A stretch of 64,000 nt of DNA from assembly GCA_965262725.1 (NCBI GenBank), contig OZ253555.1, positions 2,016,001 through 2,080,000 on the forward strand. The letters are read 5' to 3'. Source of the DNA: Dehalococcoidia bacterium. GTDB taxonomy: Bacteria; Chloroflexota; Dehalococcoidia; UBA2979. The position numbers and the translations under genes are program-made. The notes under the pieces are model-generated. The model was not told where the DNA came from. It ran no database searches and was given only the letters and a program-made list of their open reading frames with translations. Numbering within the stretch: position 1 is the first letter of the stretch; each line of letters starts with the position of its first letter. Positions 20,398-59,957 of the stretch are shown in pieces.

Positions 20398-20420
20398 GCC
20401 CCGCCCGCCTCGCCGACGGC

Positions 20421-21884: not shown

Positions 21885-21887
21885 TCC

Positions 21888-40039: not shown

Positions 40040-40566
40040 GCCAGACTCCCCCCGGCGCAGTCTACACACGCGCCGGTCGATCGAGGATGTAGGCCTGCTA
40101 CGCCTCGTACTGCGCCTCGTACTGCGCCTCGCTGATTAAGGTTCGCGTCGCGCAGCCGCTCGCTCGCCACGGTGCGGCGGCCGGACGACGTATGCGGGCC
40201 AGCCCGCAAGAGCAGCCTCGGAGCCTGCGGATCGTCCGAGAGTCGGGGAGCGGATTCAAGGAAAACTGAGCCCTGGAGTGCGTCCCGGGCTCGCCCCCGA
40301 TCTCGCACTTCGAACTGACGAGCCTCGATGACGACCTGGGACTTCAGCGGGGTTCCGCGCGCCGTAGTCCATGAGTTCCGGGTCCAACTCGACGAGTGCA
40401 TCCGCGAGCACACGGCGGAGCATCGGCGGGTATGGGGAGTTGACGAATCCGGGGCCGCGCGGGGCGTATGATGGCATGGTACGGGGTGCTGCCAGGACTT
40501 GTCCGCAACCCGACGCGGTGCGGCGTATTGCTGCTGCTCGCCCGAGCGCGGTACCAGAGGACCATC

Positions 40567-41799
40567 GTGACGACTCTCCGCGATGTCGAACTGACCGACT
40601 TGCTGGATCAAGGCGAGTCGGATCGCGTCGAGTTCAAGGAGTCGCTGGCGGGAGGCGCTGCGGGGGCGGTTCGGGAGGCGATTTGCGCGTTCGCCAATGA
40701 CCTGCCTGGCCACGGCGTGCCCGGAGTGATCTTCGTGGGTGTGCGCGACAATGGCTCAGCGGCCGGTCTACAGGTCACCGATGAGTTGCTCCGGCAGTTG
40801 GCCGACATGAAGACGGACGGCAATATCGTTCCACCTCCCTCCATCGCGGTGCAGCGGCTCGTCATCCACGGGGGGGGGGAGACAGCAGTCGTCACGGTAG
40901 TGCCGTCGGACTCACCACCGGTCCGCTACCGAGGCGGAGTACATATCCGGATCGGTCCCCGGCGAGGGCGTGCGACCGCCCAGGACGAGCGGATTCTCAA
41001 TGAGAGACGCCGCTCCGGTGACACGCTATTCGATGTCCAGCGGGTGCCTACATCGACGCTCGATGACTTGAATCTAGGCTTCTTCGAGAACGAGTACCTG
41101 CCGCAGGCCTTCGCGCGGGAGGTGATTGAGGCCAATGAGCGCAGTCGCGAGGAGCAACTGGCAGCGACGAAGATGATCGCATCGGCCGACGATCCGGCCG
41201 CCACGGTGCTCGGGCTGCTCGTACTCGGTAAGAACCCACAGGATTTCCTGCCTGGCGCCTACGTCCAGTTTCTCCGAGTGGGTGGAACCGAACCGCATGA
41301 TGACATCATCGACAGCGAGGACATCCGCGGCTCGGTCGGGGATGTGCTGCGCCGTCTCGACGAGAAGCTCAGGGCCCACAACCGAACCGCTATCGACTTT
41401 GTCTCCTCCTCAACCGAACGGCGAACCGGCCTGTATCCGGTACCAGCCATTCAGCAGATCACACGGAACGCCGTCATGCACCGCACCTACGAGGCGACCA
41501 ACGCCCCTGTGCATGTCCGTTGGTTTGAAGACCGAATTGAGGTGATCAGCCCTGGGGGGCCATTCGGACGGGTGACCGCCAGCAACTTCGGCAGCGGCAG
41601 CGCGGTCGACTACCGCAACCCCAATCTGGCCGAGGCGCTGCACACGTTAGGCTTCGTCCAGCGGTTCGGCGTCGGTATCCCGACGGCTCAGCATCTGCTG
41701 AGGGAGGCCGGACATCCAGAAGCGAGATTCAGAATCGACGAGAGCACTGTGCTCGTGACCATCCCGGCGATAGCGAGCCCTGGAGGCGCGCCGAGATGA
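40567..41799 (+). CDS. Schlafen/AlbA_2 domain protein with a HATPase_c_4 (RecG C-terminal-like) domain
   Basis: GESDRVEFKES, ICAFAN, GVIFVGVRDNG, NAVMHRTY, RIEVISPG, RNPNLAEAL and GVGI. Confidence 0.88.
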   Translation: MTTLRDVELTDLLDQGESDRVEFKESLAGGAAGAVREAICAFANDLPGHGVPGVIFVGVRDNGSAAGLQVTDELLRQLADMKTDGNIVPPPSIAVQRLVIHGGGETAVVTVVPSDSPPVRYRGGVHIRIGPRRGRATAQDERILNERRRSGDTLFDVQRVPTSTLDDLNLGFFENEYLPQAFAREVIEANERSREEQLAATKMIASADDPAATVLGLLVLGKNPQDFLPGAYVQFLRVGGTEPHDDIIDSEDIRGSVGDVLRRLDEKLRAHNRTAIDFVSSSTERRTGLYPVPAIQQITRNAVMHRTYEATNAPVHVRWFEDRIEVISPGGPFGRVTASNFGSGSAVDYRNPNLAEALHTLGFVQRFGVGIPTAQHLLREAGHPEARFRIDESTVLVTIPAIASPGGAPR

Positions 41800-42875
41800 C
41801 GGTTCCTGTCCTCACCTTCTTTAACAACAAGGGTGGTGTCGGCAAGACCTCGCTCGTGTACCACCTCGCGTGGATGTTCTCGGAAAGGGGTCATCGGGTG
41901 CTGGCCTGCGATCTCGATCCTCAGGCCAACCTCACCAGCATGTTCCTGGAAGAAGATCGTCTGGAGTCCGTGTATGAGGAAGGCGACGGGTCGCCTTCAC
42001 CGTCTGGAACCATCTTCGAGTGCGTGAGGCCGTTGATGGAGGTGGGAGACCTGCGCTCCCCGACCCTCCAGAAGATCACCACCGAGTTGCAGTTGATACC
42101 CGGCGATTTGGCGCTCGCCGGCTTCGAGGACACGCTATCCGCAGAGTGGCCAAACGCCCTTCGATCAACCGACATCTACCGCCCTTTCAGGATTCTGACT
42201 GCGTTCTCCACCATCATGCAGGACGGTGCCTCTCGGATGGATGCCTCCGTCATCCTCGCCGATGTCGGCCCCAACCTCGGCGCGATCAACCGATCAGCCC
42301 TGATTTCGACTGACTATGTCATCGTGCCCGTTGGGGTCGACCTCTTTTCTCTTCGCGGGCTCCGTAACCTCGGTCCCACACTGCAGAACTGGCGTGCCGA
42401 GTGGGAGAAGCGGCTCCAGAACTGGCTTGACCCAGCCTTCGATCTCCCCAACGGCCGGATGGAGCCTATCGGCTACGTGGTGCAGCAACACGGCGTGCGC
42501 CTGAGCCGGCCCGTACGAGCGTACGATAAGTGGGTCAACCGAATGCCGAGGGAATACGCACGCAGCCTGCTTAGAGATGACCAGGGGCCGTACGCCCCAA
42601 CACCGGAAGACGACGAGCACGCTCTCGCCACAATCAGGCACTACCGGAGCCTCGTTCCGATGGCCCAAGAGGTGCGCAAGCCCGTGTTCAAACTCACCTC
42701 GGCCGACGGAGCCATTGGCAGTCACGCTGCAGCCGCCAGCAGCGCCTACTCCGACTTCAAGACCTTGTCCGAGAACATAGTCGAGCGTATGTCGCAGCCT
42801 TCAACCTCCCGCCGCAAGGAGCGACGCGGCGGACCGGCCGGGCGAGCCGCTTCGCGGAGGGGTCGCATGGGGTGA
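41796..42875 (+). CDS. ParA-family ATPase
   Basis: FNNKGGVGKT, DLDPQANLT and DVGPNLGAINR, with an ATGA overlap with the upstream gene. Confidence 0.9.
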   Translation: MTVPVLTFFNNKGGVGKTSLVYHLAWMFSERGHRVLACDLDPQANLTSMFLEEDRLESVYEEGDGSPSPSGTIFECVRPLMEVGDLRSPTLQKITTELQLIPGDLALAGFEDTLSAEWPNALRSTDIYRPFRILTAFSTIMQDGASRMDASVILADVGPNLGAINRSALISTDYVIVPVGVDLFSLRGLRNLGPTLQNWRAEWEKRLQNWLDPAFDLPNGRMEPIGYVVQQHGVRLSRPVRAYDKWVNRMPREYARSLLRDDQGPYAPTPEDDEHALATIRHYRSLVPMAQEVRKPVFKLTSADGAIGSHAAAASSAYSDFKTLSENIVERMSQPSTSRRKERRGGPAGRAASRRGRMG

Positions 42876-43114: not shown

Positions 43115-44041
43115 GTGCTCGAACGACCGACGCTCGACGAGATGCTGCTTACGGTCTTCGCGATCGTCGTGTTCGCCATCGTGCAACTCGGCTCGAACTC
43201 CGATGGCAGCGTGGAGCCTCCCGCGGCGACGCCGACTGGGACGCCCCGGGCAGCGGCCCCTGCCGCCACTGCAACGCCCTCGGTCGTCGCGTCGTCCGGC
43301 ACCGCTACCCCGACTGCCACCGTCACCCGGCGGGCCACGGCTACCCCCACCGTGGCCGCAGCGGTCGCCGCCACCCCCGCCACCGCCGCGACCCCGAAGG
43401 ATCCTGACAGCTGTGACTTCCGCGACGAACTCGAGCGCGTGCGTGGCGCGGTCGTCCGCATCCGCGCGCCGGCGAGCCCGTACAGTGGCAGCCAAGGCAC
43501 CGGCTTTCACATCGGCGGCGGCGAGTACGTGACCGCGGCGCACGTCGTGCAGGATGAACGCGGCAGAGCCCACGACGAGATCTACGTGGCGTCGGCGCTC
43601 ACCGGGCGCTCGGAGCGGGCCGAAGTAGTGAGCGCCGGATCGTTCAGCACGAGCGGCGACCGCCAGCACCGCGATATCGCCATTCTCCGGAGCGCCCTCA
43701 TAGTCGCACACTCGATCGCGTCCCGCACCCCGGAGGACGGCGACGTCGGGCGGGATGTGCGGGCGCTCGGCTATCCGTGGTCGCAGGCCGGGGACGACTC
43801 GGCGGCGGTCCCGGCGCCGGTGGTGGTGCGCGGCGTCTTGTCGAACGCTGCGGTGCGCGACAACATAGCCGTCGTCCAGGCCGACGTGCAGGCGCAGAGC
43901 GGCATGAGCGGCGGGCCGCTCGTCGACGAGTGCGGCTTCGTGCTGGCCGTGGCCTCGGCCGTGCCGCGTGCGCTGCGCGGCGAGGCCGGCGACGGTCTCA
44001 CGGTCTTCATCTCGATGGCCGAACTGGACAAGCTGCGGTAG
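43115..44041 (+). CDS. membrane-anchored trypsin-like serine protease
   Basis: N-terminal TM, Thr/Ala/Pro linker, and the triad TAAHVV / DIAIL / GMSGGP. Confidence 0.9.
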   Translation: MLERPTLDEMLLTVFAIVVFAIVQLGSNSDGSVEPPAATPTGTPRAAAPAATATPSVVASSGTATPTATVTRRATATPTVAAAVAATPATAATPKDPDSCDFRDELERVRGAVVRIRAPASPYSGSQGTGFHIGGGEYVTAAHVVQDERGRAHDEIYVASALTGRSERAEVVSAGSFSTSGDRQHRDIAILRSALIVAHSIASRTPEDGDVGRDVRALGYPWSQAGDDSAAVPAPVVVRGVLSNAAVRDNIAVVQADVQAQSGMSGGPLVDECGFVLAVASAVPRALRGEAGDGLTVFISMAELDKLR

Positions 44042-44058
44042 GCAGCGGAGGAGCGGCG

Positions 44059-47000
44059 ATGGGCGCGGTCAACATCTTCCTCGGCGGCACCGGCAAGGCT
44101 GTGGCCGAGGACATCCAGGACAGCCGCGACTTCTATCCGGCGTTCCGCGACGCAATTGGCGACCCCATCGCGTTCGATCTCGACGTCACGGTGCGCGACG
44201 GAGTAGGGCTCGACATCATCGCGCCCGGCGACCTCGCGACGAGTGGCGTCAAGCAGTTGGCGACGCAGTGGTCGACACAGGATCCTGGGCCGGGGGTGGG
44301 CCCGGAGTCGAACGGGAGCCCGCCCGGCCCGCGGCTTGAGGCGGAGCGCTCGCTGCTCGTGAACGTGGGCCGTGGCATCTCCGCCAATCCCGAGCCGGGC
44401 GCTGGGCTCTACGCCCTGCGCGCGCACGGCCTCGCGGTCTTCTCGTTGCTGTTCGACGAGTCGAGGCAAATCGCGGGCGCGGGCGCGGGCACCGAGTTGC
44501 GCAACCGTATCGCCAGCGCTGTCGAGAACCAGACGTTCGGCGGCCGACCGCCGCGTATCAACCTCGTTACCTCCACGGCCGGCGGCACGGGCGCGGGCAC
44601 GGTGATCCCGCTCGCACTGTGGTTACGCAAGGAGTACCGGTACTCGCCGCTCAACCTCATCGCGGTCACCGCGTCGGCCTTCACGAAGGTGCTCAGCGGC
44701 AATCCCACGATGCGGGACCGTGCGGCGAAGGGGCGTTCGGGGACATACGCGATGCTGCGCGAACTCGCGTTCCTCTCGGAGCAGACCGACGACCAGGCGC
44801 AGTTTTCGACGCGCAGCCTGCCGGTCACGGACGGCGGGCTGGAGTACCGCCCGGGGCAGCAGATCTTCCGCCGCGTCTACTGGTTCGGCGGGCGGCGCGG
44901 CGGCAACCCGGAGGATGCCTTCGAGGAGGCAGGGGCGCTGCTACGCCTGCTCAGCCACGATGACAGCGCTGACCGGCTCGACGGGCAGACCGGCTCCGAT
45001 CCGATGCGCTCGGTGGGAGCGATCACGGCGATCGAGTACCCGAAGTTGCGCTACCAGCGCCGCATGATCTCCGCCGTGCTGCAGATGGCGTACCGCGACC
45101 TCCGCGAGTCGCCGCGGGATTACGAGGGCGCTACGCAAGAAGAGACCACGCTGCTTGCCTACGCCGCCAACGAGCCGGGAGGCCTCGGCGGATGGTTCCA
45201 CGATCACCGCCACGACGCGTTCGCCCCGGCCACAGCCATGGACGTGGACCGTTCCGCCGCCGACGATCTCGCCCGCCGCATCCGCACCCCCGCCCAAGCG
45301 TCCGGCGGCTACGAGCGCGTGCAGCGCGGTACCCAGGTGGAGGTCGGCGTCGAGGGCGACATCTACGGCGCCGGCGAGGTCGATTGGCGCAAGTACGTCG
45401 GCAGGGTCAAGGACGGCCTCGACCGCGAGGCGGACCGCAGGCAGAGGGGCCTGCAGCGGGCGATCCGCGAGATGCGCCGCGAGGAGGAGCAGGCGTTCGG
45501 CCGTTGGCTCAAGCAGGAACTGGAGCAGCGCCTCGGCAGCGAGGGCTCCGATGCGACCGGCGGCGTGCTGCAGCTACTAGCCGGGCTCGACGCCAATGCC
45601 TCCGAATTGCAGGAGCGGGTCGGCCGGGACGGCTTCTTCGGCAGCGAACTCACCCTCGACCAGAGCGATGCGCGGATCCGGGAGGCAACGGACAAGTTCG
45701 ACAATCCGCCGCGGGCTGCGGCCGAGCCCTCCGGCCTCGACCGCTGGATGCCGCTCGGCCTCGGCGCCGTCGCCCTCTTCGCCGTGCTCGCCATCGCTCG
45801 GGCGATTCCCGGGCGCAGCCTCGCCGGCGTCGGGACCGAGTGGATTGCGTGGGGTCTCGCGTTCGCCGCGATGTTCGTGACGTACCGTGGCGCACGCTCG
45901 TGGAGGATGAAGGGCAAGGCCGCATCGCTCGAGACGCAAAGGCAGCGCGCCGAGGCTCGCCTGTTCGAGGCCTACGAGGAACGCGACCGCGTGCGCGCGC
46001 TGCAATGGATGCATCAGGAGCTGCGCGGGCACGACGGCGCTTTGCCGTTCTTCGGCGAACTGCGTCAGCAGATCGACTCAGCGCGCACCGCCGTTGGCGA
46101 TCTCGAAGCCGCCTACAAGGAGCTGGAGGCCTTGGCCACCTACGATGTCTCGCAGGCGGGCGAGAGCCCGCCGCACGTCGCGGCCGAGGTCGGCGACTGC
46201 GTTCCTCACGACCCGGATCTCGCCGGCAGCATCGCGGGCAAGATGCGGGAGCGCTTGCGGATCGAGGCACAGGCCAGCCCGAAGCCCCGCGTGCTGGAGC
46301 TGACGCTGCGGCTCGTTCCCGGCGAAGCCGACGGCGATGTCTTCGCTCCGGTCGTCGGGGCGGTCGGCCCGATCCTGCAGGCCCTGCGCGACACAGAGCA
46401 GGCGGGCCTCGAGGACGCCAAGCGAATCGCGAACCGCTGGCGCGAGTCGGTCTGGAACCTGATCAACGTGGAACTCGGCCAACGCCTGCCGGATGACTTC
46501 AGCGCCGCGCTCGCCGAATGCGCGGACGGGGATGCGGGCAAGGCGTCGAGCACGCTGGCCTCCAAGCTGCTCGGCCTTGACTTGCCGCGCGGGCCCTCGG
46601 TCGAATTGCAGGCCGCGGCGGCCGCACCGGCCGTGCGAGGCGTCTTCGTCGGCGGCACGGCGATCGGGGCCGAGTTCAACCTCGCGCTGCGGGCGCCCGA
46701 GATGGCCCCGAACCTGGCGGCGCTCCAGTCCTACGGCGAGCCGCAGATCGTGCCCGCGCTGGGCCAGCAGATCGTCTTCCTCGACCTCTGGGTCGACCCC
46801 GGCGTCCATGACTGGGCGCCCGGCGTGATCGGCAGTGCCACCGAGGCCAGGGCGGCGATGAAGACCTACTACGGCGCGGAGGTCGGCGTCCCGCCAGGCG
46901 CGACGGCACGGGAGACCTGCTTCACGGTGCTGCCCGAGCTGCTCGCGGCGACCAAGGTCGAGCTGCTCGACGGCGACGTCCAGCCGCTCGCGCCCGCGGT

Positions 47001-47598
47001 CGTCGCGCGCATGCTGGGCAGCGACCTCGATACGCAGGGCCCCACCTACGCCGAGCTCTTCTACCTGCTGCGCGCTCGCCGCCGGCTCTCCTCGAGTGTC
47101 GAGGGCGCCGGACCCGCGGCCCGCGAAGTCACGACGATCGCCGGCGAGGGCGGCGGTCCGCTGCGGCTCGTCGACTGGCCGCCCGGCGGCCTCAGCGACG
47201 GCGTCTTCGGTGACGGACGTATGACCGTGGTCGCCTTCGACGCCTTCTGCGAGTTCATGCGCTTCGACGGCACTCCCGGCATCGCCGGCGAAGCGTCGGC
47301 TGACGGCCTAACCTTCCCCGGTGCCACGATCTTCGCCACCGACTGGCAGCGCGAACGCGAGCGGGTCGCCGCGCTCCAGCGCGCGGTCGTACGGGAGTGG
47401 TATCACGGTGACGTCGAGGCCGACTGCGCCGCCATGATCGCGCTGCTCGAAGAGGACCTGGGGCGCATGGCGGACGGCCGGGACTACGCGCGAGAGAGCT
47501 GGGGACGCGCGATGCGGCGACTGCTCGCGGGCGACGAGCGGCGCAAGATCCGCGCGACGCACCTCGACGGGTCCGGCGGACAGGGGAGCGGTGGCTGA
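44059..47598 (+). CDS. tubulin/FtsZ-like (Tubulin_2) domain protein with coiled coils and a central TM hairpin
   Basis: ATG after GGAGGAG. Motifs IFLGGTGK, GAGLYALRAHG and STAGGTGAG. Two TM helices lie mid-protein. Confidence 0.8.
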   Translation: MGAVNIFLGGTGKAVAEDIQDSRDFYPAFRDAIGDPIAFDLDVTVRDGVGLDIIAPGDLATSGVKQLATQWSTQDPGPGVGPESNGSPPGPRLEAERSLLVNVGRGISANPEPGAGLYALRAHGLAVFSLLFDESRQIAGAGAGTELRNRIASAVENQTFGGRPPRINLVTSTAGGTGAGTVIPLALWLRKEYRYSPLNLIAVTASAFTKVLSGNPTMRDRAAKGRSGTYAMLRELAFLSEQTDDQAQFSTRSLPVTDGGLEYRPGQQIFRRVYWFGGRRGGNPEDAFEEAGALLRLLSHDDSADRLDGQTGSDPMRSVGAITAIEYPKLRYQRRMISAVLQMAYRDLRESPRDYEGATQEETTLLAYAANEPGGLGGWFHDHRHDAFAPATAMDVDRSAADDLARRIRTPAQASGGYERVQRGTQVEVGVEGDIYGAGEVDWRKYVGRVKDGLDREADRRQRGLQRAIREMRREEEQAFGRWLKQELEQRLGSEGSDATGGVLQLLAGLDANASELQERVGRDGFFGSELTLDQSDARIREATDKFDNPPRAAAEPSGLDRWMPLGLGAVALFAVLAIARAIPGRSLAGVGTEWIAWGLAFAAMFVTYRGARSWRMKGKAASLETQRQRAEARLFEAYEERDRVRALQWMHQELRGHDGALPFFGELRQQIDSARTAVGDLEAAYKELEALATYDVSQAGESPPHVAAEVGDCVPHDPDLAGSIAGKMRERLRIEAQASPKPRVLELTLRLVPGEADGDVFAPVVGAVGPILQALRDTEQAGLEDAKRIANRWRESVWNLINVELGQRLPDDFSAALAECADGDAGKASSTLASKLLGLDLPRGPSVELQAAAAAPAVRGVFVGGTAIGAEFNLALRAPEMAPNLAALQSYGEPQIVPALGQQIVFLDLWVDPGVHDWAPGVIGSATEARAAMKTYYGAEVGVPPGATARETCFTVLPELLAATKVELLDGDVQPLAPAVVARMLGSDLDTQGPTYAELFYLLRARRRLSSSVEGAGPAAREVTTIAGEGGGPLRLVDWPPGGLSDGVFGDGRMTVVAFDAFCEFMRFDGTPGIAGEASADGLTFPGATIFATDWQRERERVAALQRAVVREWYHGDVEADCAAMIALLEEDLGRMADGRDYARESWGRAMRRLLAGDERRKIRATHLDGSGGQGSGG

Positions 47599-49957
47599 GC
47601 GCCCGCCTCGCAGGCGCCTCGCCGCGGCTCTGGTCGCCGCGCTTGCGCTCGCGGCGCTGCTGGCGGGAGCGGGACTGCCGCGCCCCGGTGGCGACGCCGC
47701 CGCGCAGACACCTGCCGAGTCGCCGCCTACCCGCGTCGTCTTCGCCATCGATAACTCCGGCTCCATGTTCGGCGTCGGCGGCGAGCCCGCCAGCGACCTC
47801 GACCAACAGCGCATCGAGGGCGTCCGCGGCCTGATCGAGGTGCTGCGCGGCTTCCTCGGCGCTCCCCGCGAGCAGCGCCGCGTCGAGCTCGGCGCGCTCT
47901 CGTTCGGCGGCGACGAGCCGGAGCTTCTGAGCGCGCCCGCCTCGGTGCTCGATGAGGCGCTGCCGGACCGGCTGCGCGCTGAACCCGTGGGGGGAGGCAC
48001 CGACTTCCGCTCGGCGCTCTGCGCCGCCTGGGCGATGGCTACGGGCGAGACGCCGCCGGCCAGCGCCAGCTGCCCTCCCCTCCCGTTCGGATTCGCCGAC
48101 ACCACCCCCGCCGCCGACAGCCGCCTGCTCGTCGTCGTGATCACCGACGGCAGCCCCGCCCGCGGCGGCGACGACCTCGGCTTCGACGGCGATCCCGTGG
48201 CCGCCGACTGCCCCGGCGGCCACGGCGGCTACGACTCTCCGGACGGCGACGCCTACCTTTGCGCGCTCGCGGCGACATGGACGGCGCTGCGCGCCGAGCG
48301 CGCCGCCGACCTCGTCGTGATCGGCCTCGACGCGCCCGGGCGCTGGTTCCCGGCCGCCGAGACGCACTGGCAGCGCGTCGCCCAGTGCGGCGGCCCGGGC
48401 CAGCGCGACTGCGCCGACCGCGTGGTCCGCAGCGTCGATCCCGGGCAGCTCGCCGCGCTGATCCTCGGCGCGTTCCCGGGCGTCGACCTCTGCGAGGCGG
48501 TCGCCGATCGCGGCGACGCGTTCACCTGCGACGTGCCGGGCGGCCTCGCCGCCGTCGGCTTCCAGGTGACGGGCCTGAACGCGGGTGCGCTCACCGGCAT
48601 CGAGAATACGGCCGGCGAAACCTACCGCTCCGATGTCGCGCACCGGGAACTGGGGGGGCGCGGCGAGAGCGCGCACGTATGGCGCTTCGAGCGGCCAGTC
48701 GCCGGCGGGTGGATGGTGACGGCCAACGGCCCGCCCGGCCAGCGCGCCATCGTCGACTACGCGCCGGTCGAGTTCCGCGTGGAGCTGCGGACGTGGGACG
48801 CCGTACGCGGCCTCTTGGGGTTCGTGCTGGCCACGGCCGCCGATGTGCACGTCGCCTCGCTACTCGACCAGCCGTACCGCCTCGAGCTGCTGCACGACGG
48901 GCGGAGCATCGAGGGCATAGAGGTGATGCTCGCCCACGAGGGCGGCAGGGCGTACTCGCTGGAGGTGCCGCTCGCGGCGGGCGCGAGCGGCGGCGTGTAC
49001 ACGGTCGTGCTCTACCTTCAGACCGCGCGCACGCTGATCGAGGTCGGGCGGCTCGAACTGCCCCCGCCCCCGGCACCCACACCCTCACCCTCGCCCTCGC
49101 CCTCGCCGTCTCCCTCCCCCTCACCGCCGCCGTCTCCCACGCCAGAAGCGACACCGCCTCCCCGGCCAGAGGCGACACCACCTCCCCCGCCTCCGTGCTC
49201 GGAGTTCGAGGCGAAGTGGGAGGGCGAACCCGGCACCGCGTCGCGCTGGCGCTGGGCCTTTCGCGCTGGCCTCGAACTCCCGCCCGTCCGCTTCCGCGAC
49301 TCCGCCGTCTGGCGCGTCACGATCGAATCGCCGGACTGTGACGAGCCGATCGCAGCCAGCGCCCGCATCCTCGGCTGCGAGTGGTGCGAGGCCGAGACGG
49401 AGGGCACGCCGCCGCTCGCGCCGCTCGACGTCCCGACGGCCGGACGTCCCGACGATGCCTCGACGCGCGCGTGGTTTGCGGAGTCGCCGCGCACCACCGA
49501 CGGCGCGAGTGAGCCTGTGCGGCTCTCCGACTCGTGGCTGTTGCACGCGGAGCCCGTGTGGGCGGCCGCGCTGCACCTGCTGGCGCTGGCCGCGCTCGCG
49601 GTTGGCGTGAGCGCGGTCGCGGTGCGGCGTCCGCACAAGTGGCGTCACGGCGAGACGCCAGAGGCGCCGATCCGCCTCGCCGTGCCCGACGAACGCCAGC
49701 GCCTGGCGGGCATCGTGCGCCTCGGGACTTTCGTCGGGCGGCGCAGCCCGCGCGACGAGACAGCTAAAACGGAGGGTAAGTTGCTCACGCTGCGCTGGCT
49801 GATCTTCGGCCCGCTCGTCGCCCGCGAGACCGCAGAGGGCGCGACGCGGCGGGCGCGCTGGTTCGGCGTTCCCACCGCCCAGGCCCCCGACGCCCAGGCC
49901 CCCGACGCCGAGGCTCGCCGCCTCGACATCCGCCGCCTCCCGCCCCGCCGCGCCTGA
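47591..49957 (+). CDS. exported vWA-domain protein with a Pro-rich linker and C-terminal TM
   Basis: Signal-like N-terminus, MIDAS DNSGSM, GGTDF, VITDG, and a (PS)n/Pro linker. Confidence 0.85.
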   Translation: MAERPPRRRLAAALVAALALAALLAGAGLPRPGGDAAAQTPAESPPTRVVFAIDNSGSMFGVGGEPASDLDQQRIEGVRGLIEVLRGFLGAPREQRRVELGALSFGGDEPELLSAPASVLDEALPDRLRAEPVGGGTDFRSALCAAWAMATGETPPASASCPPLPFGFADTTPAADSRLLVVVITDGSPARGGDDLGFDGDPVAADCPGGHGGYDSPDGDAYLCALAATWTALRAERAADLVVIGLDAPGRWFPAAETHWQRVAQCGGPGQRDCADRVVRSVDPGQLAALILGAFPGVDLCEAVADRGDAFTCDVPGGLAAVGFQVTGLNAGALTGIENTAGETYRSDVAHRELGGRGESAHVWRFERPVAGGWMVTANGPPGQRAIVDYAPVEFRVELRTWDAVRGLLGFVLATAADVHVASLLDQPYRLELLHDGRSIEGIEVMLAHEGGRAYSLEVPLAAGASGGVYTVVLYLQTARTLIEVGRLELPPPPAPTPSPSPSPSPSPSPSPPPSPTPEATPPPRPEATPPPPPPCSEFEAKWEGEPGTASRWRWAFRAGLELPPVRFRDSAVWRVTIESPDCDEPIAASARILGCEWCEAETEGTPPLAPLDVPTAGRPDDASTRAWFAESPRTTDGASEPVRLSDSWLLHAEPVWAAALHLLALAALAVGVSAVAVRRPHKWRHGETPEAPIRLAVPDERQRLAGIVRLGTFVGRRSPRDETAKTEGKLLTLRWLIFGPLVARETAEGATRRARWFGVPTAQAPDAQAPDAEARRLDIRRLPPRRA

Positions 49958-49977
49958 CGCCTCCGCCCGTAGCGCGC

Positions 49978-51147
49978 CTACCGGCAGTCCTCGTCGTCAA
50001 AGGGCTTCACGAAGTAGAGATTGAGGCGCACCTCCTGAGACACGAGTGCCTTGGGTGCGAGGTAGTCGCCGAACCATTCCCAGCGCCCTTCGGCAGGCGC
50101 GTCCCGCAGGATGTCGATACCGGCGCGCCGCAGCCCCTCGGAGAAAGCGTCGTTGACATGCCGCGCGAGGTCGACGTGGTTGCCGTCCGGCTCGTGGGCG
50201 AACGTCTCCACGAGCGCGATGCGCAACCCCTCGGCGAGCTTCTCACGCAGGAACGCCTCTGCCCGTGAGTCGGACCAATCGCCGTCCCCGATCTTGTCAA
50301 GTTCCGCTGACTTGATGACGTCCTCCCGTACCTGGCTGTTGGCGATTTCATCCCAGTCGACAGCACCGAGCGCGGCCCCGGTGAGCACGATCTGGGCGAA
50401 ACGGAAATCGGTCTGCACCTCGGAGCACTCCGGAGCCGACGCTACGACCGCAGTGCGCGGCAGCAGTACAGGGAAGGCGGCGCTGTGCTCGCTGCCGTCA
50501 CTCGACACGGTGAGGGTGACGGCACCCGACTCGTAGAAACTCGCCAAGAAGCTCGAGGCTCCCCCCGCGTCCGGCTCGCCGCGCTCGGCTGTCCACTTGT
50601 ACAAGAACGGCTCGTCGCCTCCGATCTCCGGTGTGCAGCGCACGTTGATCCGGCCACCGGCCGCCGGGCCGCCGGGTGCTTCCATCTCGCAGCCGATGTT
50701 GAGGATCACCGGAGGGATGATCGGCGGAGCAGCAGGTGGCGGCAGGACTGCGAACTCGGCGCTGTCATCGCCACCCTCGTTCGAGACGGTGAGGCGGACG
50801 GCTCCCGCGTCCTTGAAGTTCGCCAGGAAGCTCGATGCGTCACCCGCGTCCGGCTCGCCGCGCTCGGCTGTCCACGCGTAGGACTGCGCCTCGTCGGCCC
50901 TGAGTCGCGGCTCGCAGTGGACGGGGATCAGCCCGGCGACCCGCTCGCCCTGCTCGCAGCCGAGATCGAGGATCTCTGGCGCTTCGACAAGCGGCGCCTC
51001 GACGGACGGCTCGGCGGCGACGGGCGTCGCCTCGGGGTCCCGGTCCGCGGACAGGACGCCGGACGTGAGGGCGAGGAAGACGAGCGCCAGCACCAGCATG
51101 AGGTCGGCCAGCAGCCAGCCTGCGATGCCGACTCCCTCGTCGTTCAC
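49978..51147 (-). CDS. membrane protein with a MotB/ZorB-like N-terminal helix and two PKD-like repeats
   Basis: GWLLADLMLVLALVFL (TM Asp) and a duplicated WTAERGEPDAG.ASSFLA...GAV.LTVS segment. Confidence 0.6.
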   Translation of the reverse strand: MNDEGVGIAGWLLADLMLVLALVFLALTSGVLSADRDPEATPVAAEPSVEAPLVEAPEILDLGCEQGERVAGLIPVHCEPRLRADEAQSYAWTAERGEPDAGDASSFLANFKDAGAVRLTVSNEGGDDSAEFAVLPPPAAPPIIPPVILNIGCEMEAPGGPAAGGRINVRCTPEIGGDEPFLYKWTAERGEPDAGGASSFLASFYESGAVTLTVSSDGSEHSAAFPVLLPRTAVVASAPECSEVQTDFRFAQIVLTGAALGAVDWDEIANSQVREDVIKSAELDKIGDGDWSDSRAEAFLREKLAEGLRIALVETFAHEPDGNHVDLARHVNDAFSEGLRRAGIDILRDAPAEGRWEWFGDYLAPKALVSQEVRLNLYFVKPFDDEDCR

Positions 51148-53849
51148 CGCCGCCCGCCCCGCCCGTCGCCAAGTTCGTCGAGCACGCGAGTCGCCACGGT
51201 GTTCATCCTGCTCGCCGCCAGCTCAAGCGAAGCGGCGCTGCGCTCGATGCCCGAGTCGGGGCCGCTGAACTCACCGGCCATCGCGTCGGTGAGCAGGGCC
51301 AGTTGCCCCGCCAGCCGCGCGAGCTGCTGCGAGGCGTCGTCCAGCTTGCCCGCCGACGGCTCGAGACTGCCCCCGATGCCCTCAAGCGCCTCGGCGCTGC
51401 GTGCTGTCGCCTGCTCCACGCTGGCGAATGCGGCCTGGAGCGCGCTCAGTTCGCCGCCGGCCAGTTCGATAGCGCTCGCCGCGACATCGAGCCGCTCCGC
51501 AGCGGGTTCGAGGCTGCCGCGGATGCCTTCGAGCGCGTCGGCGCTGCGCGCGGACGCCGCCTCGCTGCTGGCGAACGCGGTCTGCAGCGCGCCGATCCGC
51601 TCGGCTGCCCGCTCGGCCGCGCTGGCCGCCTTTGCGAGGTCGCGCGCGGACGGCTCGATACCGGCGCGGATGCCCTCGAGCGCGTCGGCGCTGCGCGCGG
51701 CGGCGGCCTCGGCCCCGGCGAGCCCGCGCTGGAGCGCCGCGAGCTGGTCGCCGATCTGCGCGACGCGGCCGAGCCGCTCGACGATCGCGGCGCTCTGCTC
51801 CTGCTGCTGTTTCGCCATCTCCGATGTCTGGTCGAGCGCCTCCCGCACCGCGACGAGCGAGTCGGCGAAGGGCTGGGCCGAGGCTTGCAGCGAGGCCCCG
51901 ACGGCGCGCAGTTCGCGCGTCAGTTCGCTGCCGGCGACGGCGAAGCCGGCGAGCGCCTCCTGCGGATCGGCGGCGCGCTGCGCCGCGCCAGCCGCCTCCG
52001 CCTGCGCGAGCACGGCGGCAAACGCCCGCGCTTCGCGCGCCGCTGCCCACCCGGCGCGCCCACGGATCAAGCCGAGCCACACGTTCACCGCGATCAGCAG
52101 CCCAAGGACGCCGGCGACTTGCAGTGCGGCGTGCTCAAGAGTCCCGCCGAGCCACCACCTGAAGATTCCGCCCAACGGCCCATCGCCGCCTTCCTGCACC
52201 CAGAACTCGAAGAACGGTTCTGAGCGATCCCATGCCGAGACTGCCGACTGGAGCTTGATCCACGTCCACAGCACCGGCATGAAGATCAGGACGTTGCGGA
52301 CGAGCTCGACGAGCCACTCGAAGCGATTGCGTACGAGGGCGGCGCCGACCATCTCCGGCGTGATGGCCGCCGGCGCCACGCTCATCGCCGGCGGCGACTC
52401 CCCGCGCTCGACGCCCGCGACGCGTTGCGCGTACTCCGAGACCGCCCCGGCGAGCCTCTGCGCGCCCGCACGGGCGAGCCGTCGCGCGTAGCCTTCAAGG
52501 CCCGCCGAGGCGCTCGGGGTATCGGCCGAGTGTCCGGCCGGCGCGTCCGGCTCCGAGGCGGCCGGCGGCTCGTTCGCCGTGGGTTCGGCAGGCTTCTCCT
52601 TGCCGTCCTCGTCACGCGCAGCGCTATCCGCTGTGGATGCGACGTGCGGAGCCCCCTGATCGGGCGGCTGCTCGCCGGGGTCTTCACTCACGGGCTCCTC
52701 CTCGCCGGTCGGCAGCTCGTCCGCCGCGGCTTCGGCAGGCTCCTCCTCGACATCCTCGTCACGCGCGGCGCCATCCGCTGCGGATGCGACGTGCGGATCC
52801 CCCTGATCGGGCGGCTGCTCGCCGGGGTCTTCGCTCACGGGCTCCTCCTCACCAGCCTCGCCGGGGCTGGGCGGCGTCAGGTCGGTGCGGACGGCGGGGC
52901 GGGCGCGCAGTCGCTCGTGCTCCTCGGGTGTGATCAGGCCCTCGTCGGCGAGGCTCTGCAACTCGCGCAGGCGCGACCTATCGCCGCTGCCGTCCGGCGG
53001 CTCCTCGCTCATGGCCTCCCCCTCGCCGCCCGGCGTCCCGTGCGGACGCCCGTCCACCGCGCTCGTGCGGTTGCGATGCTGCCCGCCCGCATCGCCCTCG
53101 ATCAAGCCGTCGCCGCTCCGGGACCGACGACCACCGGTTGCGTGGCTCTTCTCGCCGGATGCGTCGGCGTCCGGCCGCTCCTCCGCGCCGGGCACTGACT
53201 CCACCGACGATGGCGGGGCTTGGTCGTCGTCGCCGGAACCGGCGGCCGCCTCGCGCCGGGCCTGCTCCTCCGCTTTGCGGCGGGCCTGCTCCTCCCGGTT
53301 TCGTTGGGCTCGGCGTGCCTGCGCGAGGCGACGGGCGACGCCGGCTTCGCGTTCGAGGCGGTCACGCTCCTCGGCCTCCAGACGGTCACGCTCCTGCTCC
53401 GTCTCGCGGCGGCGGCGCTCCTCGCCGTCGCGGCGGGCTCGATCGACGGCGTCTGGCCACTCCTCCGCCTCGCGGCGCTGCCGCTCCTCATCGCGACGCG
53501 CCTGTTCGGCATCGCGCTGGGCCGCCTCTCGCCCGGCGAGCCTCACTTGGCGCTCGCTGTCCGATTCGAGTTCGTGGAGCCGGAGGCCGCGCCGCTCGCG
53601 CAGCAACTCGGGCAAGTTGAGCCACTCCTCGGGCGACATCAGCTCCTTCAGGCGCACGAGGGTCACTCGCTCGATCGCCTGGGCCCGGCCGCCGCGCGCA
53701 CGCCGTTCCCGATCGATCCAGCGGAAGTCGGGATCGTCCGAGCGCACTATGCGCGGCGCGAGATCCTCCAAATAGTACCGTTCCTGCTCGTCCCAGCGGC
53801 TCCACGCTCGGATCAGGTCGTCGAGCAGATCGAGGGCCGTCCCGTGCAT
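51144..53849 (-). CDS. ZorA/MCP-like membrane protein with a long coiled-coil tail (alternative start at 53012)
   Basis: SHOCT-like motif, two 49-aa acidic repeats, TM segments (RNVLIFMPVLWTW...PFFEFW...), and three 49-aa coiled-coil repeats. Confidence 0.6.
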   Translation of the reverse strand: MHGTALDLLDDLIRAWSRWDEQERYYLEDLAPRIVRSDDPDFRWIDRERRARGGRAQAIERVTLVRLKELMSPEEWLNLPELLRERRGLRLHELESDSERQVRLAGREAAQRDAEQARRDEERQRREAEEWPDAVDRARRDGEERRRRETEQERDRLEAEERDRLEREAGVARRLAQARRAQRNREEQARRKAEEQARREAAAGSGDDDQAPPSSVESVPGAEERPDADASGEKSHATGGRRSRSGDGLIEGDAGGQHRNRTSAVDGRPHGTPGGEGEAMSEEPPDGSGDRSRLRELQSLADEGLITPEEHERLRARPAVRTDLTPPSPGEAGEEEPVSEDPGEQPPDQGDPHVASAADGAARDEDVEEEPAEAAADELPTGEEEPVSEDPGEQPPDQGAPHVASTADSAARDEDGKEKPAEPTANEPPAASEPDAPAGHSADTPSASAGLEGYARRLARAGAQRLAGAVSEYAQRVAGVERGESPPAMSVAPAAITPEMVGAALVRNRFEWLVELVRNVLIFMPVLWTWIKLQSAVSAWDRSEPFFEFWVQEGGDGPLGGIFRWWLGGTLEHAALQVAGVLGLLIAVNVWLGLIRGRAGWAAAREARAFAAVLAQAEAAGAAQRAADPQEALAGFAVAGSELTRELRAVGASLQASAQPFADSLVAVREALDQTSEMAKQQQEQSAAIVERLGRVAQIGDQLAALQRGLAGAEAAAARSADALEGIRAGIEPSARDLAKAASAAERAAERIGALQTAFASSEAASARSADALEGIRGSLEPAAERLDVAASAIELAGGELSALQAAFASVEQATARSAEALEGIGGSLEPSAGKLDDASQQLARLAGQLALLTDAMAGEFSGPDSGIERSAASLELAASRMNTVATRVLDELGDGRGGRR
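52564..52851. repeat. 147-bp tandem duplication within the CDS
   Basis: EEEPVSEDPGEQPPDQG.PHVAS.AD.AARDED occurs twice, 147 bp apart. Confidence 0.85.
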
Positions 53850-53865
53850 CGCTATCCCCGAGTCG

Positions 53866-54909
53866 TTACAGCGTGTCGAGGATCGCGTCGACCAGAACGC
53901 GGGCACCGAAGGGCTCGCGGCGGGCGTCGCCGGCGTAGGCGAACAGCGGGCTGCTGGTGCCCCACGCGAAGGCCGGTTCGTGGTCGCCCGCGACCTGGCC
54001 GAGGTTCAGCGCCTCCGCCAGCCGCCGACCTCCTATCACGTCCATCGCGCGCACGCGCTCGTGCCAGCCCGGTCCGGCTGGCAGCGACTCGATCAGCGGC
54101 GGGTGCACTGAGAAGCGCAGGCGGTCAGCCTTTGTCACCACCACCCAGACGCGGCGGCCGCCGGGCGGTGCTTCCACAAGCTGGAGCACGCGGTCGTTGG
54201 CGTCGGCGGGCTTCCGCCCGTCGCGCAGGGCGTCGGGGAAGGAGTCGGCGATCTGTGCGTGCTGCGTCGGGTCGATCACCAGCACGACCGCGTCGAACTC
54301 AGCGAGGGGCGGCAGCGGGCCGCGGCGGCCGCCTTCGATCGCGCGGGACTCCCAGATCCGCAGCGCTGCCTCGCTGCCGTCGCCACGCCGCACGGCGAAC
54401 TCCGTCGCGTGCAGGCTGCCGTCCTCGCCGCTCCGGACGGGCCCCGCCAGGCGCGGGCCGACGGCGGCGATCATGCCCTCGACGAGCGCCGACTTGCCGG
54501 CGCCGGCGGGGCCGCTGACCAGCACCCAGCGGTCGGGGGCCGTCTTGTCGCGCCGCAGCTCGTCGTCGGAGAGCACCTCGGCGGCAGCCCGTCCCCAGTC
54601 GTCCCGGATCCGGCGGTTTACCGCCCAGTACGCCAGAGCTCCCGCCGCCGCCGCGGCGGCAGCGGCGACGAGCAAGGTCTGACTGCGGTCCGCGAACGCA
54701 CCGAAGGTGACGCAGCCCGCGATGAGCATGGCGAGAGCGAGCGACGCCTGCGAGCGAGATGTACGGTGGCGCGAGAACGGCCTCAACGTCAGCAGCACAT
54801 CGGCTGCAAGCGCCCCGAGAGTCGCGCTCAGCAGCACCACAAGTGCGAATGCGCGCTCGATCTCGGGGAGGGCGAGGTCGAACGGGAATGGCCAGTCGGG
54901 GACGCTCAC
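53866..54909 (-). CDS. membrane-anchored TRAFAC-class GTPase
   Basis: Three N-terminal TM helices, G1 GPAGAGKS, degenerate G3 (IWESRA), LVIDP and G4 TKAD. Confidence 0.75.
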   Translation of the reverse strand: MSVPDWPFPFDLALPEIERAFALVVLLSATLGALAADVLLTLRPFSRHRTSRSQASLALAMLIAGCVTFGAFADRSQTLLVAAAAAAAAGALAYWAVNRRIRDDWGRAAAEVLSDDELRRDKTAPDRWVLVSGPAGAGKSALVEGMIAAVGPRLAGPVRSGEDGSLHATEFAVRRGDGSEAALRIWESRAIEGGRRGPLPPLAEFDAVVLVIDPTQHAQIADSFPDALRDGRKPADANDRVLQLVEAPPGGRRVWVVVTKADRLRFSVHPPLIESLPAGPGWHERVRAMDVIGGRRLAEALNLGQVAGDHEPAFAWGTSSPLFAYAGDARREPFGARVLVDAILDTL

Positions 54910-56903: not shown

Positions 56904-57737
56904 ATGATCCCGACGACCATGGGCACGGAGCGATCCGCAGCCGAGGCACGCAGCCGGGCCGGGCGCACCCGCGGGACGGGACGGGCCGCCGGTGTGATCC
57001 GCGTCTGCCTGTTCGACGAGTGCGAGCTCACCGAGGACGGCGAGTACCGTCCGCTTCCACGGGCCGTCCGCCGCCTGCTCGCGCTGCTGGCACTCAACCG
57101 GGAGGGTCTCTCCCGGAGCGACGCCGCGGCGCTGCTCACGCCGCACCTGAGCACGCAGGGCGCGCGCGGGAGCCTGCGGAAGACGCTCACGTGGCTGCGG
57201 GCCACGGGGCTGGACGTGGCGGAGGTCGACGGCGCCACGCTGCGGCTGGCCCCCGGGGTGAAGGTGGATGCGTGGGAGCTGGAGGAGCTGGTTGCCGGCC
57301 TCGCCGCGGGATCGGTGTCCCCCGGGCACGAACAGTTCCAGCGCTTGGCGTCCTGGCCCCCGCCCCGCTGGTACCCTCCCTGGCTGAGAGCCGAACTCGA
57401 GCGTCTGCGCGACCTCGTGCTGGAGGCGCTGGAGGCGGACGCGCGCCGGGCGGCGGCGGGCGGCGATGTGGAACGAGCACTGGCCGCCGCCTTCGCGGCG
57501 GTGGAGATCGATCCGCTTCGCGAGAGCAGCGTCGGCGTGCTGCTCCAGATGCTTTGCCTGGCGGAGCACCACACCGGGGTGCTGGAGATCTCCCGTTCCT
57601 TCTATCGGAGTCTCGAGGCCGTCGGGCGCGCGCCCTCGGAGGCGATGCAGGCGCTCGTCGCGGCGATGCTGGGTAGCGCCTACGGGAAGATGATCGAGAG
57701 CCTTCCTCGCAGCCGTCGCCGTCGTGCGCGGCGCTGA
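56904..57737 (+). CDS. SARP/AfsR-type regulator (wHTH plus BTAD)
   Basis: RLLALLAL, SLRKTLTWLR, VDAWE, DPLRES and PS motifs. Confidence 0.85.
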   Translation: MIPTTMGTERSAAEARSRAGRTRGTGRAAGVIRVCLFDECELTEDGEYRPLPRAVRRLLALLALNREGLSRSDAAALLTPHLSTQGARGSLRKTLTWLRATGLDVAEVDGATLRLAPGVKVDAWELEELVAGLAAGSVSPGHEQFQRLASWPPPRWYPPWLRAELERLRDLVLEALEADARRAAAGGDVERALAAAFAAVEIDPLRESSVGVLLQMLCLAEHHTGVLEISRSFYRSLEAVGRAPSEAMQALVAAMLGSAYGKMIESLPRSRRRRARR

Positions 57738-58057
57738 GCGGGGGCCGGACACGACCTGGCCCCGCGCGGCGGTTCGCGGCTCCGGCCACTCTCCTCGCTC
57801 CCCGGCCGCCGTAGCCGGGATCGACCAGTGCCGGTACCGGGGCTCTCACCTGCCGGGCCGGCCGAGGCGCCGCCCGATCGCGACGTGCGGGCACGTATGA
57901 CGCCGCGGGTTGCGGCCGAGCGACTCACCGGCGTGCGCCCCGGGGGTGCCTTCCGCGATGGCCCCGATCGCGATCCGGCGCTGCGGGGGACCAGGGCGGC
58001 TTCCGGTGTCCGCCGCGTGTCGAGTATCCTCCGGTCACCCTCGGGGGAAGGCCACCC

Positions 58058-58546
58058 GTGCGTTACGGCATCGCTACCCTGACCACCGCGCAGCGCCTCT
58101 GCCTGGGGCTCGCCGCTCTCGGCATGGTGGCCGCGGTCGTGGGCGTCTTCGCGCCTCTTGCCGAGGTGCGGTACAGCCACACGCCCGTCCCCATCCAAGT
58201 CGATCACCCATCCTATTTCTCCGACGTCACCGGCATCGAGCACGTCCGCGGCAACTACCCGGTGTCGGATGGGAAGTGGGTGGTGTTCTTCGCCTTGCTG
58301 GCGCCGCCCGCTCTCGCTGTGATGGCGGCGTTCCGGCGGTGGCGACTCTCGGCGCTGCCCATGCTGTCGGTGTCCGTCGGCCTTGCCGTCGCGTTCCTCG
58401 CTGTGGACGTGTATGCCGAGGCGGGCGGGAGCGATAGCGGCGAGGACGTCATCATCCAGAACGAGATCGCGATGCTCGTACCTCTGGCGGCCTTCCTCGC
58501 CGGTGCCAGCAGACTGGGGTGGCTGGGCATCACCCGCGAGGCATAG
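58058..58546 (+). CDS. hypothetical membrane protein (about 4 TM)
   Basis: Four hydrophobic segments. The start codon is uncertain. Confidence 0.55.
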   Translation: MRYGIATLTTAQRLCLGLAALGMVAAVVGVFAPLAEVRYSHTPVPIQVDHPSYFSDVTGIEHVRGNYPVSDGKWVVFFALLAPPALAVMAAFRRWRLSALPMLSVSVGLAVAFLAVDVYAEAGGSDSGEDVIIQNEIAMLVPLAAFLAGASRLGWLGITREA

Positions 58547-58857
58547 CTGGCACCAGAGGCGCGGCGCTCATGGATCTCGGTGGGCACCATGCGGAGCGGA
58601 GCCGCCAGCCACCCCATGTCCGTCACGCGCACGTGGCGCCCCCACCCGGGGAGCGGATCGGGGCGTTGGGTGCGCGAGGCGACGGAGGTCGGGAGCAGCC
58701 GGAGCGCCGCCGTGTTGCACCCTCAACGAGATCCAGACGCTGGATGAGGCCGGGCCCGCCGAGCCGCTCAGCGCCCTCCCACCGGCCGCGTCGCGCTCGC
58801 GGGCGCGGCCCCGGGGCGGGGCTGTTGGGCGGGATCGCCCGTCCGGGGGGCACGCTC

Positions 58858-59694: not shown

Positions 59695-59818
59695 GTCGTG
59701 TCCTCCGATCCCGTCGCCGCGCCCGGAAGGAGCGTCTCGCGGCGGGGTCCGCGAGCGCCGGAGCGACTCGTCGCCGGGCCGGCCGCGGTGCCGGCCGGCG
59801 GCGCGGGCACGACCGGAG

Positions 59819-59957
59819 CGTCACAAATCGCGCGACAAACCGGACGCCTCCGGCGCCCCGATCCGAACCTGAACCGGCGGGACCGGGCGGCGTCCGGGGC
59901 ACGCGGACGCGCATCCCGGGGCCCGCCGCGGCCGTTCTTGTTGCGCGATTTGTGACG
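59819..59957. promoter_or_regulatory. pair of inverted 15-bp motifs in the divergent SARP/tad intergenic region
   Basis: CGTCACAAATCGCGC (59819-59833) and its exact reverse complement (59943-59957). Confidence 0.6.

Follow-up and report, generated by a model that had tools for sequence, protein, structure and literature searches.

A conserved six-gene membrane cluster with tubulin-like, vWA and GTPase proteins and a candidate stator-like gene pair in a Dehalococcoidia bacterium

Analysis of a 64,000-nucleotide (nt) stretch of the genome of a Dehalococcoidia bacterium (assembly GCA_965262725.1, contig OZ253555.1, positions 2,016,001 to 2,080,000; hereafter the window, whose numbering is used unless another locus is named) showed a cluster of six genes at 43115-54909. 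The genes were arranged as two convergent operons, A-B-C on the plus strand and F-E-D on the minus strand. Gene A (43115-44041) encoded a membrane-anchored, outward-facing trypsin-like serine protease of 308 amino acids (aa), gene B (44059-47598) an FtsZl1/Tubulin_2-type protein of 1179 aa, and gene C (47591-49957) a vWA protein of 788 aa. On the opposite strand, gene F (53866-54909) encoded a membrane-anchored divergent P-loop GTPase of 347 aa, gene E (51144-53846) a protein of 900 aa with two transmembrane (TM) helices and a coiled-coil tail, and gene D (49978-51147) a single-pass protein of 389 aa whose TM helix carries Asp15. The gap from A to B was 17 nt and B and C overlapped by 8 nt, while E started 19 nt past the stop of F, E and D overlapped by 4 nt, and the convergent stop codons of C and D lay 20 nt apart. 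All six open reading frames (ORFs) had a coding-type third-position GC content (GC3) of 0.85-0.90, and the GC content across the window was 0.61-0.80 per 2-kb window. The coordinates, GC3 and short gaps and overlaps agreed with the first-pass annotation of this DNA, a reading of the letters that had proposed six tightly packed genes in two convergent operons. A promoter and terminator scan produced nothing informative.

The reading frame of B was open from 43777 already, and the 1179-aa form was taken because relatives align from its residue 1. The ORF of E could begin at 53906 (a 920-aa ORF, of which 53846 is the 21st codon), but the start is most likely at 53846, because 16 of 20 aligned relatives have the Met of MHG... 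or a near equivalent; the N-terminal part of E was wholly absent in 2 other relatives of these 20. Membrane helices were predicted as 19-residue stretches with a Kyte-Doolittle mean of at least 1.6, and at least one was predicted in each of the six products, as expected from the earlier suggestion that all six are membrane-anchored. The hydrophobic stretches were located at residues 7-25 of A, 565-588 of B, 10-28 and 653-681 of C, 8-26 of D, 569-594 of E (900-aa numbering), and 22-40, 55-73 and 79-97 of F.

The D protein consisted of an N-terminal TM helix, two PKD/Ig-like domains and, at the C-terminus, a conserved alpha/beta domain of ~140 aa with Cys residues. The helix was encoded at 51064-51132, with the Asp15 codon at 51103-51105, and the N-terminus (MNDEG..AGWLLADL.LVLA..FLA) was the most conserved part of the protein. 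Residues W11 and D15 were unchanged in 29 of 29 aligned relatives, and the Asp was kept in 174 of 174 relatives (54 of 54 close and 120 of 120 distant ones among those listed). Thirteen diverse D-like helices were made into a profile of 36 columns, with which all 177,635 distinct PDB sequences were screened at E<=10. The search produced 9 matches and nothing else: 4 TolR sequences, 4 ExbD sequences and 8qyd_F. The best match was a TolR sequence (E 0.013), and 8qyd_F was obtained at E 0.63. In the alignments, the profile Asp stood opposite residue 23 in full-length TolR and residue 25 in ExbD; 8qyd_F was aligned over chain residues 25-41, by which range the Asp of D falls on residue 26. Entry 8qyd is the ZorAB entry of the Zorya paper (Hu et al., PMC11946911; statements on this and the other papers cited below refer to excerpts of each), in which Asp26 of ZorB is described as universally conserved and essential, and chain F is presumably ZorB, judging by its length of 246 aa. 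As controls, profiles of equal length for both E helices matched no TolR, ExbD or ZorB in the PDB and retrieved only designed proteins, a SERCA fragment and CD1. By sequence, the membrane helix of D thus falls into the ExbD/TolR/ZorB type, with a predicted essential Asp. One relative of D also carried the automatic annotation ExbD from JGI.

Outside the helix, D produced a sub-threshold Pfam PKD match. In the AlphaFold2 model of D (mean pLDDT 86), residues 6-28 formed a helix and residues 59-227 beta-sandwiches, and an alpha/beta domain was modelled with confidence at 249-380. The best fold match of the model was a PKD domain (Z 7.8, root-mean-square deviation 2.7 over 77 residues), and a fold search with the whole model gave only Ig, PKD and FN3 domains among the matches listed, over residues 53-231, with Ig domains filling the lists. 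The number of sandwiches in relatives of D ranged from 0 to 2, and distant relatives have Pro/Thr linkers instead. PDB searches with the full sequences of D, E, F and B produced only coiled-coil or chance matches. No ExbD, OmpA or MotA_ExbB domain was obtained in six-frame searches of the whole 3.67-Mb genome, and no canonical ExbD was found in 301 Chloroflexota genomes at 1e-8.

The E protein was built, in order, of a conserved N-terminal domain, a Glu/Arg-rich helix, a SHOCT-like motif, an acidic linker, a conserved segment ahead of the membrane (pre-TM segment), TM1, an outside loop of ~30 aa, TM2 and a coiled-coil tail. TM1 was located within 52209-52316 and TM2 within 52038-52145, followed by the tail of ~300 aa (51147-52037) with three internal repeats. 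The earlier description of a coiled-coil-tail protein with a TM-Asp partner was therefore borne out, by this tail in E and by WLLADLML at residues 11-18 of D. The repeats were three tandem units of ~45 aa (..ARSADALEGIRGSLEP..) at 51147-51900. Most relatives had one copy of the unit and P0002 had several, so the length of the tail varies by repeat number. The SHOCT-like motif read LITPEEHERL. Close relatives of E were few (21 matches, without any Pfam domain). For E itself, Pfam gave SHOCT and coiled-coil noise only, NCBIfam gave nothing specific on the cluster, and an ESM Atlas search with E returned hypothetical clusters only.

A core profile of E (pre-TM segment, two helices and start of the tail) searched against 1.84 billion proteins gave 447 representatives at E<=1e-3. 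Among the 142 aligned representatives, TM1 had P544 in 142, T548 in 137 and W549 in 142, position 608 in TM2 was Thr, Ser or Asn in 94, and the coiled coil began directly after TM2. Pfam scanning of 104 members of the E family found no MotA_ExbB or SLATT domain in any (0 of 104, SLATT at E<=0.01) and coiled-coil noise only in most. In single members other domains were attached: P0185 has the two-TM core fused to a C-terminal TIR_2 domain (1.7e-25), P0100 opens with fn3, and P0146, P0188 and P0200 open with zinc ribbons.

The E core was present in 23 of 401 Chloroflexota genomes. A D-like gene lay on the same strand, directly 3' of the E-like gene, in 14 of the 16 Chloroflexota loci with room downstream; the exceptions were L096, which had no D-like gene, and L081, which was ambiguous. 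The E relative P0019 continued into D-like sequence, and the adjacency of E and D is therefore conserved in it as well. In metagenomes, a scan that started from the D motif found 80 loci, 56 of them with at least 900 nt upstream, and an E-like gene was directly upstream of the D-like gene in 41 of the 56 by local profiles; this sample was chosen by the D motif and the local E profiles are narrow. By Pfam, the order DO-GTPase2, GAP1-N2/M, E-like, D-like was found in 5 of 12 loci (L079, L080, L082, L083 and L086), and L095 had GAP1, then E, then D. Locus L048 contained a row of DO-GTPase2, GAP1-N2, an E-like gene (663 aa), a D-like gene (218 aa) and Tubulin_2 (1250 aa), the last with 25% identity to B over its full length. 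Other company of E-D included kinases, PP2C and vWA in L090, vWA, PP2C and CHAT in L089, and a caspase in L087. Judged from gene order, E-D is a fixed module of two genes in these GTPase/tubulin/vWA systems. Beside the DO-GTPase2-GAP1-E-D row, L082 (8158-14182) and L086 (11600-17588) held a second, divergent set on the opposite strand, with a short GAP1-N2/M protein, a double-zinc-ribbon protein of ~995 aa and an HSP70-vWA fusion.

The remaining four proteins carried recognisable domains or motifs. The A protein matched Pfam Trypsin_2 at 1.9e-15 over residues 128-279, with the catalytic-type motifs in place (His in AAH at 141, Asp in DIA at 187 and Ser in GMSGG at 263), and was laid out as an N-terminal TM helix (7-25), an Ala/Thr/Pro-rich linker and the protease domain. 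Its relatives in L002, L004 and L005 had 58-72% identity. Trypsin_2 proteases also adjoined remoter Tubulin_2-vWA pairs in L040 (13046-14017) and L054 (12128-13558), and the protease may therefore recur as a partner of the tubulin-vWA half. The B protein matched Pfam Tubulin_2 (PF13809) at 1.5e-10, with 41.3 bits against a cut-off of 27, and was matched in the six-frame search too. Gly motifs of the T1 and T4 type were present in it (GGTG at residue 9, GGTGAG at residue 175), so the earlier call of a 1179-aa tubulin-motif protein was confirmed. Its tubulin-like GTPase domain was encoded at ~44059-44928 and a TM hairpin in the middle of the protein at ~45751-45903, followed by a long helical C-terminal part. 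Relatives of B had 59-61% identity in three loci from metagenome-assembled genomes (MAGs) and 25-31% over the full length in L048-L054.

The C protein matched Pfam VWA_2 at 0.0011, under the cut-off, and carried an intact DNSGS metal-ion-dependent adhesion site (MIDAS) motif at residue 54. It was laid out as a signal/TM helix (10-28), an extracellular vWA domain with the MIDAS, a beta-rich region, a Pro/Ser-rich linker, a second TM helix (653-681) and a cytoplasmic tail. A vWA gene adjoined Tubulin_2 in 13 of 17 Chloroflexota loci by Pfam, and in 2 more by tblastn with C. The F protein had three N-terminal TM helices ahead of its P-loop domain, with a Walker A motif (GPAGAGKS at 133) and TKAD at 259. 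Pfam gave weak P-loop matches only, and hhalign of F and four relatives against six Pfam-confirmed DO-GTPase2 proteins gave a probability of 80% (E 1.4e-5, 141 columns).

A survey of the block with the E alignment against one genome per species gave five loci, all of them in Dehalococcoidia/Chloroflexota MAGs. All six genes were kept in order and orientation in 3 of the 5 loci (L002, L004 and L005), with identities of 58-72% for A, 59-61% for B, 51-67% for C, 46-57% for D, 42-52% for E and 52-62% for F, and L006 broke off inside E, past F. The fifth locus, L003, had a relative of E alone. The first-pass annotation had set beforehand a lack of co-occurrence elsewhere as a result that would speak against it; the six genes do co-occur in these three loci, and by this comparison the block is conserved as a unit. 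The flanks differed: a type I-C CRISPR-Cas system on one side and an insertion sequence (IS) transposase on the other in L005; a BrxC/D-type ATPase, a helicase, HsdM and IS21 remnants in L004; and three kinds of transposase and a leucine-rich repeat protein in L002. In L005, an operon of Cas3, Cas5d, Csd1, Cas7 and Cas4 (139-6522) directly adjoined the six-gene block. Two FtsZl1-vWA loci, L038 and L039, adjoined Cas1 genes.

In the window itself, the genes upstream of the cluster encoded a serine recombinase, a Replic_Relax protein, a TrwB-like coupling protein, a Schlafen/AlbA_2 protein and ParA. Of 20 relatives, one yielded B, and no B was detected in 4 same-genus genomes (73-93% complete). 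No att sites were found and there was no tRNA in the window. The earlier view of the block as cargo is therefore upheld indirectly, by the mobile-type upstream genes, the patchy occurrence of B and the changing flanks, and it finds no backing from att sites or a tRNA. Because of the patchy distribution of B and the differing flanks, the block is considered accessory and mobile and to lie among defence genes, and this setting supports a conflict role, though it does not demonstrate one. The stretch from the coupling-protein gene to the cluster (38804-42875) contained a SHOCT-domain protein, a Schlafen/AlbA_2 plus HATPase_c_4 protein and a ParA-like ATPase. Farther upstream lay a type I restriction-modification locus (HsdM, HsdS and HsdR, 17704-26347), with a KAP-family P-loop NTPase gene (20421-21884) between hsdM and hsdS. 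Downstream, at 57000-63500, was a multicopy stretch with a BTAD-regulator, RcpC/CpaB and a CpaF-like ATPase, which had at least 3 further copies in the genome at 75-77% identity and several in a same-genus genome. This stretch may itself be part of a mobile or conjugative element.

From Tubulin_2 in B, the MIDAS in C, the hhalign match of F to DO-GTPase2 and the shared E-D pair, the cluster very probably belongs to the GTPase/tubulin/vWA class of systems, in agreement with the first-pass annotation, which had pointed to conflict systems with tubulin, vWA, GTPase and peptidase modules. The favoured explanation is that the six genes are one accessory, horizontally moving module, a compact GAP1-less variant of predicted GTPase-centred conflict systems in which a DO-type GTPase is combined with an FtsZl1/Tubulin_2 protein, a vWA protein and a peptidase, with E-D as an ion unit; taken whole, this explanation stands evenly in the balance. 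Its parts differ in strength. That the cluster acts in conflict or defence has slightly the better prospects, and stator-like ion conduction by E-D is possible though somewhat doubtful. We infer both the motor function and the defence phenotype of the cluster.

Under the favoured explanation, E and D would together make up a unit that conducts ions and is coupled to the proton-motive force; in it D, probably dimeric, would sit inside an oligomer of E hairpins. The architecture would be that of ZorAB and ExbBD, namely a small TM-Asp subunit with an outside anchoring domain and a large subunit made of a hairpin and a tail. The outside domains of D and the vWA MIDAS domain would sense or hold the envelope, and an envelope disturbance, for example a phage attack, would be sensed outside by the PKD and C-terminal domains of D and by the MIDAS domain of C. 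Ion flow or movement of the E tail would then signal to F, the GTPase in the membrane, and to the tubulin-like B; B would assemble at the membrane, and the outward-facing trypsin A would be an effector or processing enzyme that processes or attacks a target. An A-subunit of two helices is able to work, as in GldL. In the Zorya structure, only TM2 and TM3 of ZorA line ZorB, TM1 being peripheral, Thr147 and Ser184 of ZorA touch Asp26, and a 70-nm tail follows TM3 (Hu et al., PMC11946911). It is tentatively suggested that E-D is a new minimal stator-like family, with the A-subunit cut to the two B-lining helices and a coiled-coil tail, coupling the proton-motive force to GTPase/GAP1/tubulin conflict systems in Chloroflexota and probably in further filamentous monoderms.

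Several results weigh against the favoured explanation. Each PDB match of the D helix covered only 17-19 residues, with individual E values of 0.013 to 1, and no Pfam OmpA or ExbD domain was found in D. No sequence relation of E to MotA, ExbB, TolQ or ZorA was obtained in Pfam, PADLOC and PDB profile searches. The Pfam DO-GTPase models did not match F. No GAP1 Pfam match was found in the six proteins, and the alignment of E with GAP1 had a probability of 0.1%; nor was there an fn3 Pfam match in the six, D having two PKD/Ig-like sandwiches. In L003 (9749-12037, on a 121-kb contig), a relative of E that scored 4e-117 with the E-core profile occurred without D, F, A, B or C. Finally, several FtsZl1-vWA loci lay amid housekeeping genes.

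The order of E, with a TM helix, a short outside loop, a TM helix and a long coiled coil, is chemoreceptor-like, and E-D could accordingly be a non-conducting signalling or scaffolding pair in which E resembles a chemoreceptor, D is a tethered outside sensor and the Asp serves for helix packing only. One nearest Atlas cluster of E was auto-named methyl-accepting transducer, one member of the E family had a weak MCPsignal match (0.0046), and the missing homology of E to motor A-subunits also fits such a pair. However, the sole PDB helices that resemble the D helix are those of ion-driven 5:2 motors, and a buried Asp in 174 of 174 relatives with a near-universal partner Thr exceeds usual packing needs, so that this explanation appears fairly unlikely. 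The position of E-D at the end of the operon, after GAP1, and the TIR fusion in the E family would also suit a membrane-breaching two-TM pore effector of the SLATT-like kind, such as the SLATT two-TM pore-forming effectors reported in GAP1-N2 systems (Kaur et al. 2020, PMC7159879); D would then be a plug or regulator, and activation would depolarise and kill the infected cell. This is improbable, given that neither E (E<=0.1) nor its 104 scanned relatives (E<=0.01) had a SLATT match and that a long conserved tail and strict pairing with D are not reported for SLATT.

A housekeeping function in remodelling the membrane or building the envelope, in place of a conflict role, would agree with the remodelling reading of FtsZl1 operons by Makarova and Koonin 2010 (PMC2875224) and with the Chloroflexota FtsZl1-vWA loci that lie amid metabolic genes (L036, L043, L044 and L045). 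The patchy distribution, with B in 1 of 20 relatives, the mobility of the block, which had CRISPR, BREX-like or IS genes as neighbours in all four loci, and the caspase, CHAT, TIR and trypsin partners in sister systems make a housekeeping role unlikely. A true but diverged Zorya system, with other genes in place of ZorC, ZorD and ZorE, would explain the pairing of a coiled-coil-tail protein with a TM-Asp protein and the presence of ZorB (8qyd_F, E 0.63) among the D-helix matches. It is highly improbable, since no PADLOC ZorA-E match was found in the six proteins, they contained no MotA_ExbB or OmpA domain, and E has two TM helices against three in ZorA. Zorya was also tried as a plain identity for the cluster and was rejected, with no PADLOC Zor match and no Pfam MotA_ExbB, MotB, OmpA or ExbD domain in the six proteins.

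GTPase/tubulin/vWA systems occur widely and are predicted to serve in immunity; to our knowledge, none has yet been put to the test, and nothing has been reported on how they would pass a signal across the membrane. If the favoured explanation is true, E-D would be a second case, independent of Zorya, of a motor as immune sensor or transducer, ion-driven units in defence would reach beyond Zorya to bacteria without an outer membrane, and a tubulin relative would be tied to immunity. The Asp helix, the Thr and the tail together give a concrete and mutable hypothesis on signal transfer at the membrane, and the six-gene version is small enough for cloning.

Comparison with Zorya showed likeness in the N-terminal TM helix of D, whose Asp-bearing sequence matches the presumed ZorB helix (8qyd_F), and in its outside domain with Cys, set against the disulfide-bearing outside domain of ZorB. 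The helical hairpin of E with Thr/Ser and a long cytoplasmic coiled-coil tail is as in ZorA, and the defence context is similar (Hu et al., PMC11946911). In contrast to Zorya, E has two TM helices where ZorA has three and has no detectable ZorA homology, D has no OmpA-type peptidoglycan-binding domain by sequence, and the partners here are a GTPase, a tubulin, a vWA protein and a trypsin without ZorC, ZorD or ZorE. The first-pass annotation had likewise noted the lack of ZorC, ZorD and ZorE, and PADLOC Zor models matched none of the six proteins, the flanks being scanned by Pfam only. Its label 'ZorB-like' holds for the TM-Asp helix of D, which is of the ExbD/TolR/ZorB type; as family assignments, 'ZorA-like' and 'ZorB-like' are not supported, there being no PADLOC or Pfam match for either. 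With ExbBD and TolQR the cluster shares the TM helix of D, whose profile matches the helices of ExbD and TolR, Asp against Asp; the Pfam ExbD model (PF02472) gave no match to D, and the cluster has no ExbB/TolQ domain and no TonB/TolA partner.

GAP1-N2-type DO-GTPase conflict systems are membrane-proximal and include tubulin and vWA genes (Kaur et al. 2020, PMC7159879). The cluster resembles them in its membrane-proximal GTPase, putatively related to DO-GTPase2, its membrane vWA protein, its trypsin partner, its tubulin-family protein with a C-terminal helical extension and its occurrence in Chloroflexota (PMC7159879), and E-D stands directly after GAP1-N2 in bona fide systems. It differs in that its genes are divided between two convergent operons. 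GAP1 and an FNIII-repeat (fibronectin type III) protein are the constant parts of the published GAP1-N2 systems (PMC7159879), and because both are absent here the cluster is regarded as a variant and not as a typical member. The excerpts of the text of Kaur et al. (PMC7159879) contain no mention of MotA, MotB, protons or a TM-Asp partner. The searchable open texts yielded no description of a motor-like pair for DO-GTPase systems, and E and D may already be drawn as unnamed TM components in Figure 6B or the source data of that paper.

Tubulin_2 corresponds to the FtsZl1 family described by Makarova and Koonin 2010, which occurs in operons together with a vWA protein, a diverged GTPase and numerous membrane proteins (PMC2875224). 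The present cluster is like the FtsZl1 system in its Tubulin_2/FtsZl1 protein of ~1100 aa with an adjacent MIDAS vWA protein, in the Walker A and [NT]KxD motifs of its diverged GTPase, and in its membrane-anchored partners (PMC2875224). It is unlike that system in having the tubulin gene and then the vWA gene, the reverse of most loci, in the internal TM hairpin of B, and in its neighbour pair E-D, which is not a recognisable MotA/MotB (PMC2875224). E-D might conceivably correspond to families B8 and B9 of these authors. The authors proposed membrane remodelling and not conflict for these operons. No MotA, OmpA or ExbD Pfam domain was found among 178 neighbours of 17 Chloroflexota FtsZl1 loci. 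Outside this phylum, supplement 5 of the same paper (PMC2875224) lists a 'MotA/TolQ/ExbB membrane protein' and an OmpA/COG1360 protein after FtsZl1 in two Deinococcus species, and 'B7' and COG1360 ('flagellar motor protein') after it in cyanobacteria, and the OmpA-like proteins are taken in the main text as beta-barrel porins. Because of these Deinococcus and cyanobacterial pairs, a stator-type pair is seen to recur beside FtsZl1, and E-D may be, by inference, the Chloroflexota counterpart of that pair.

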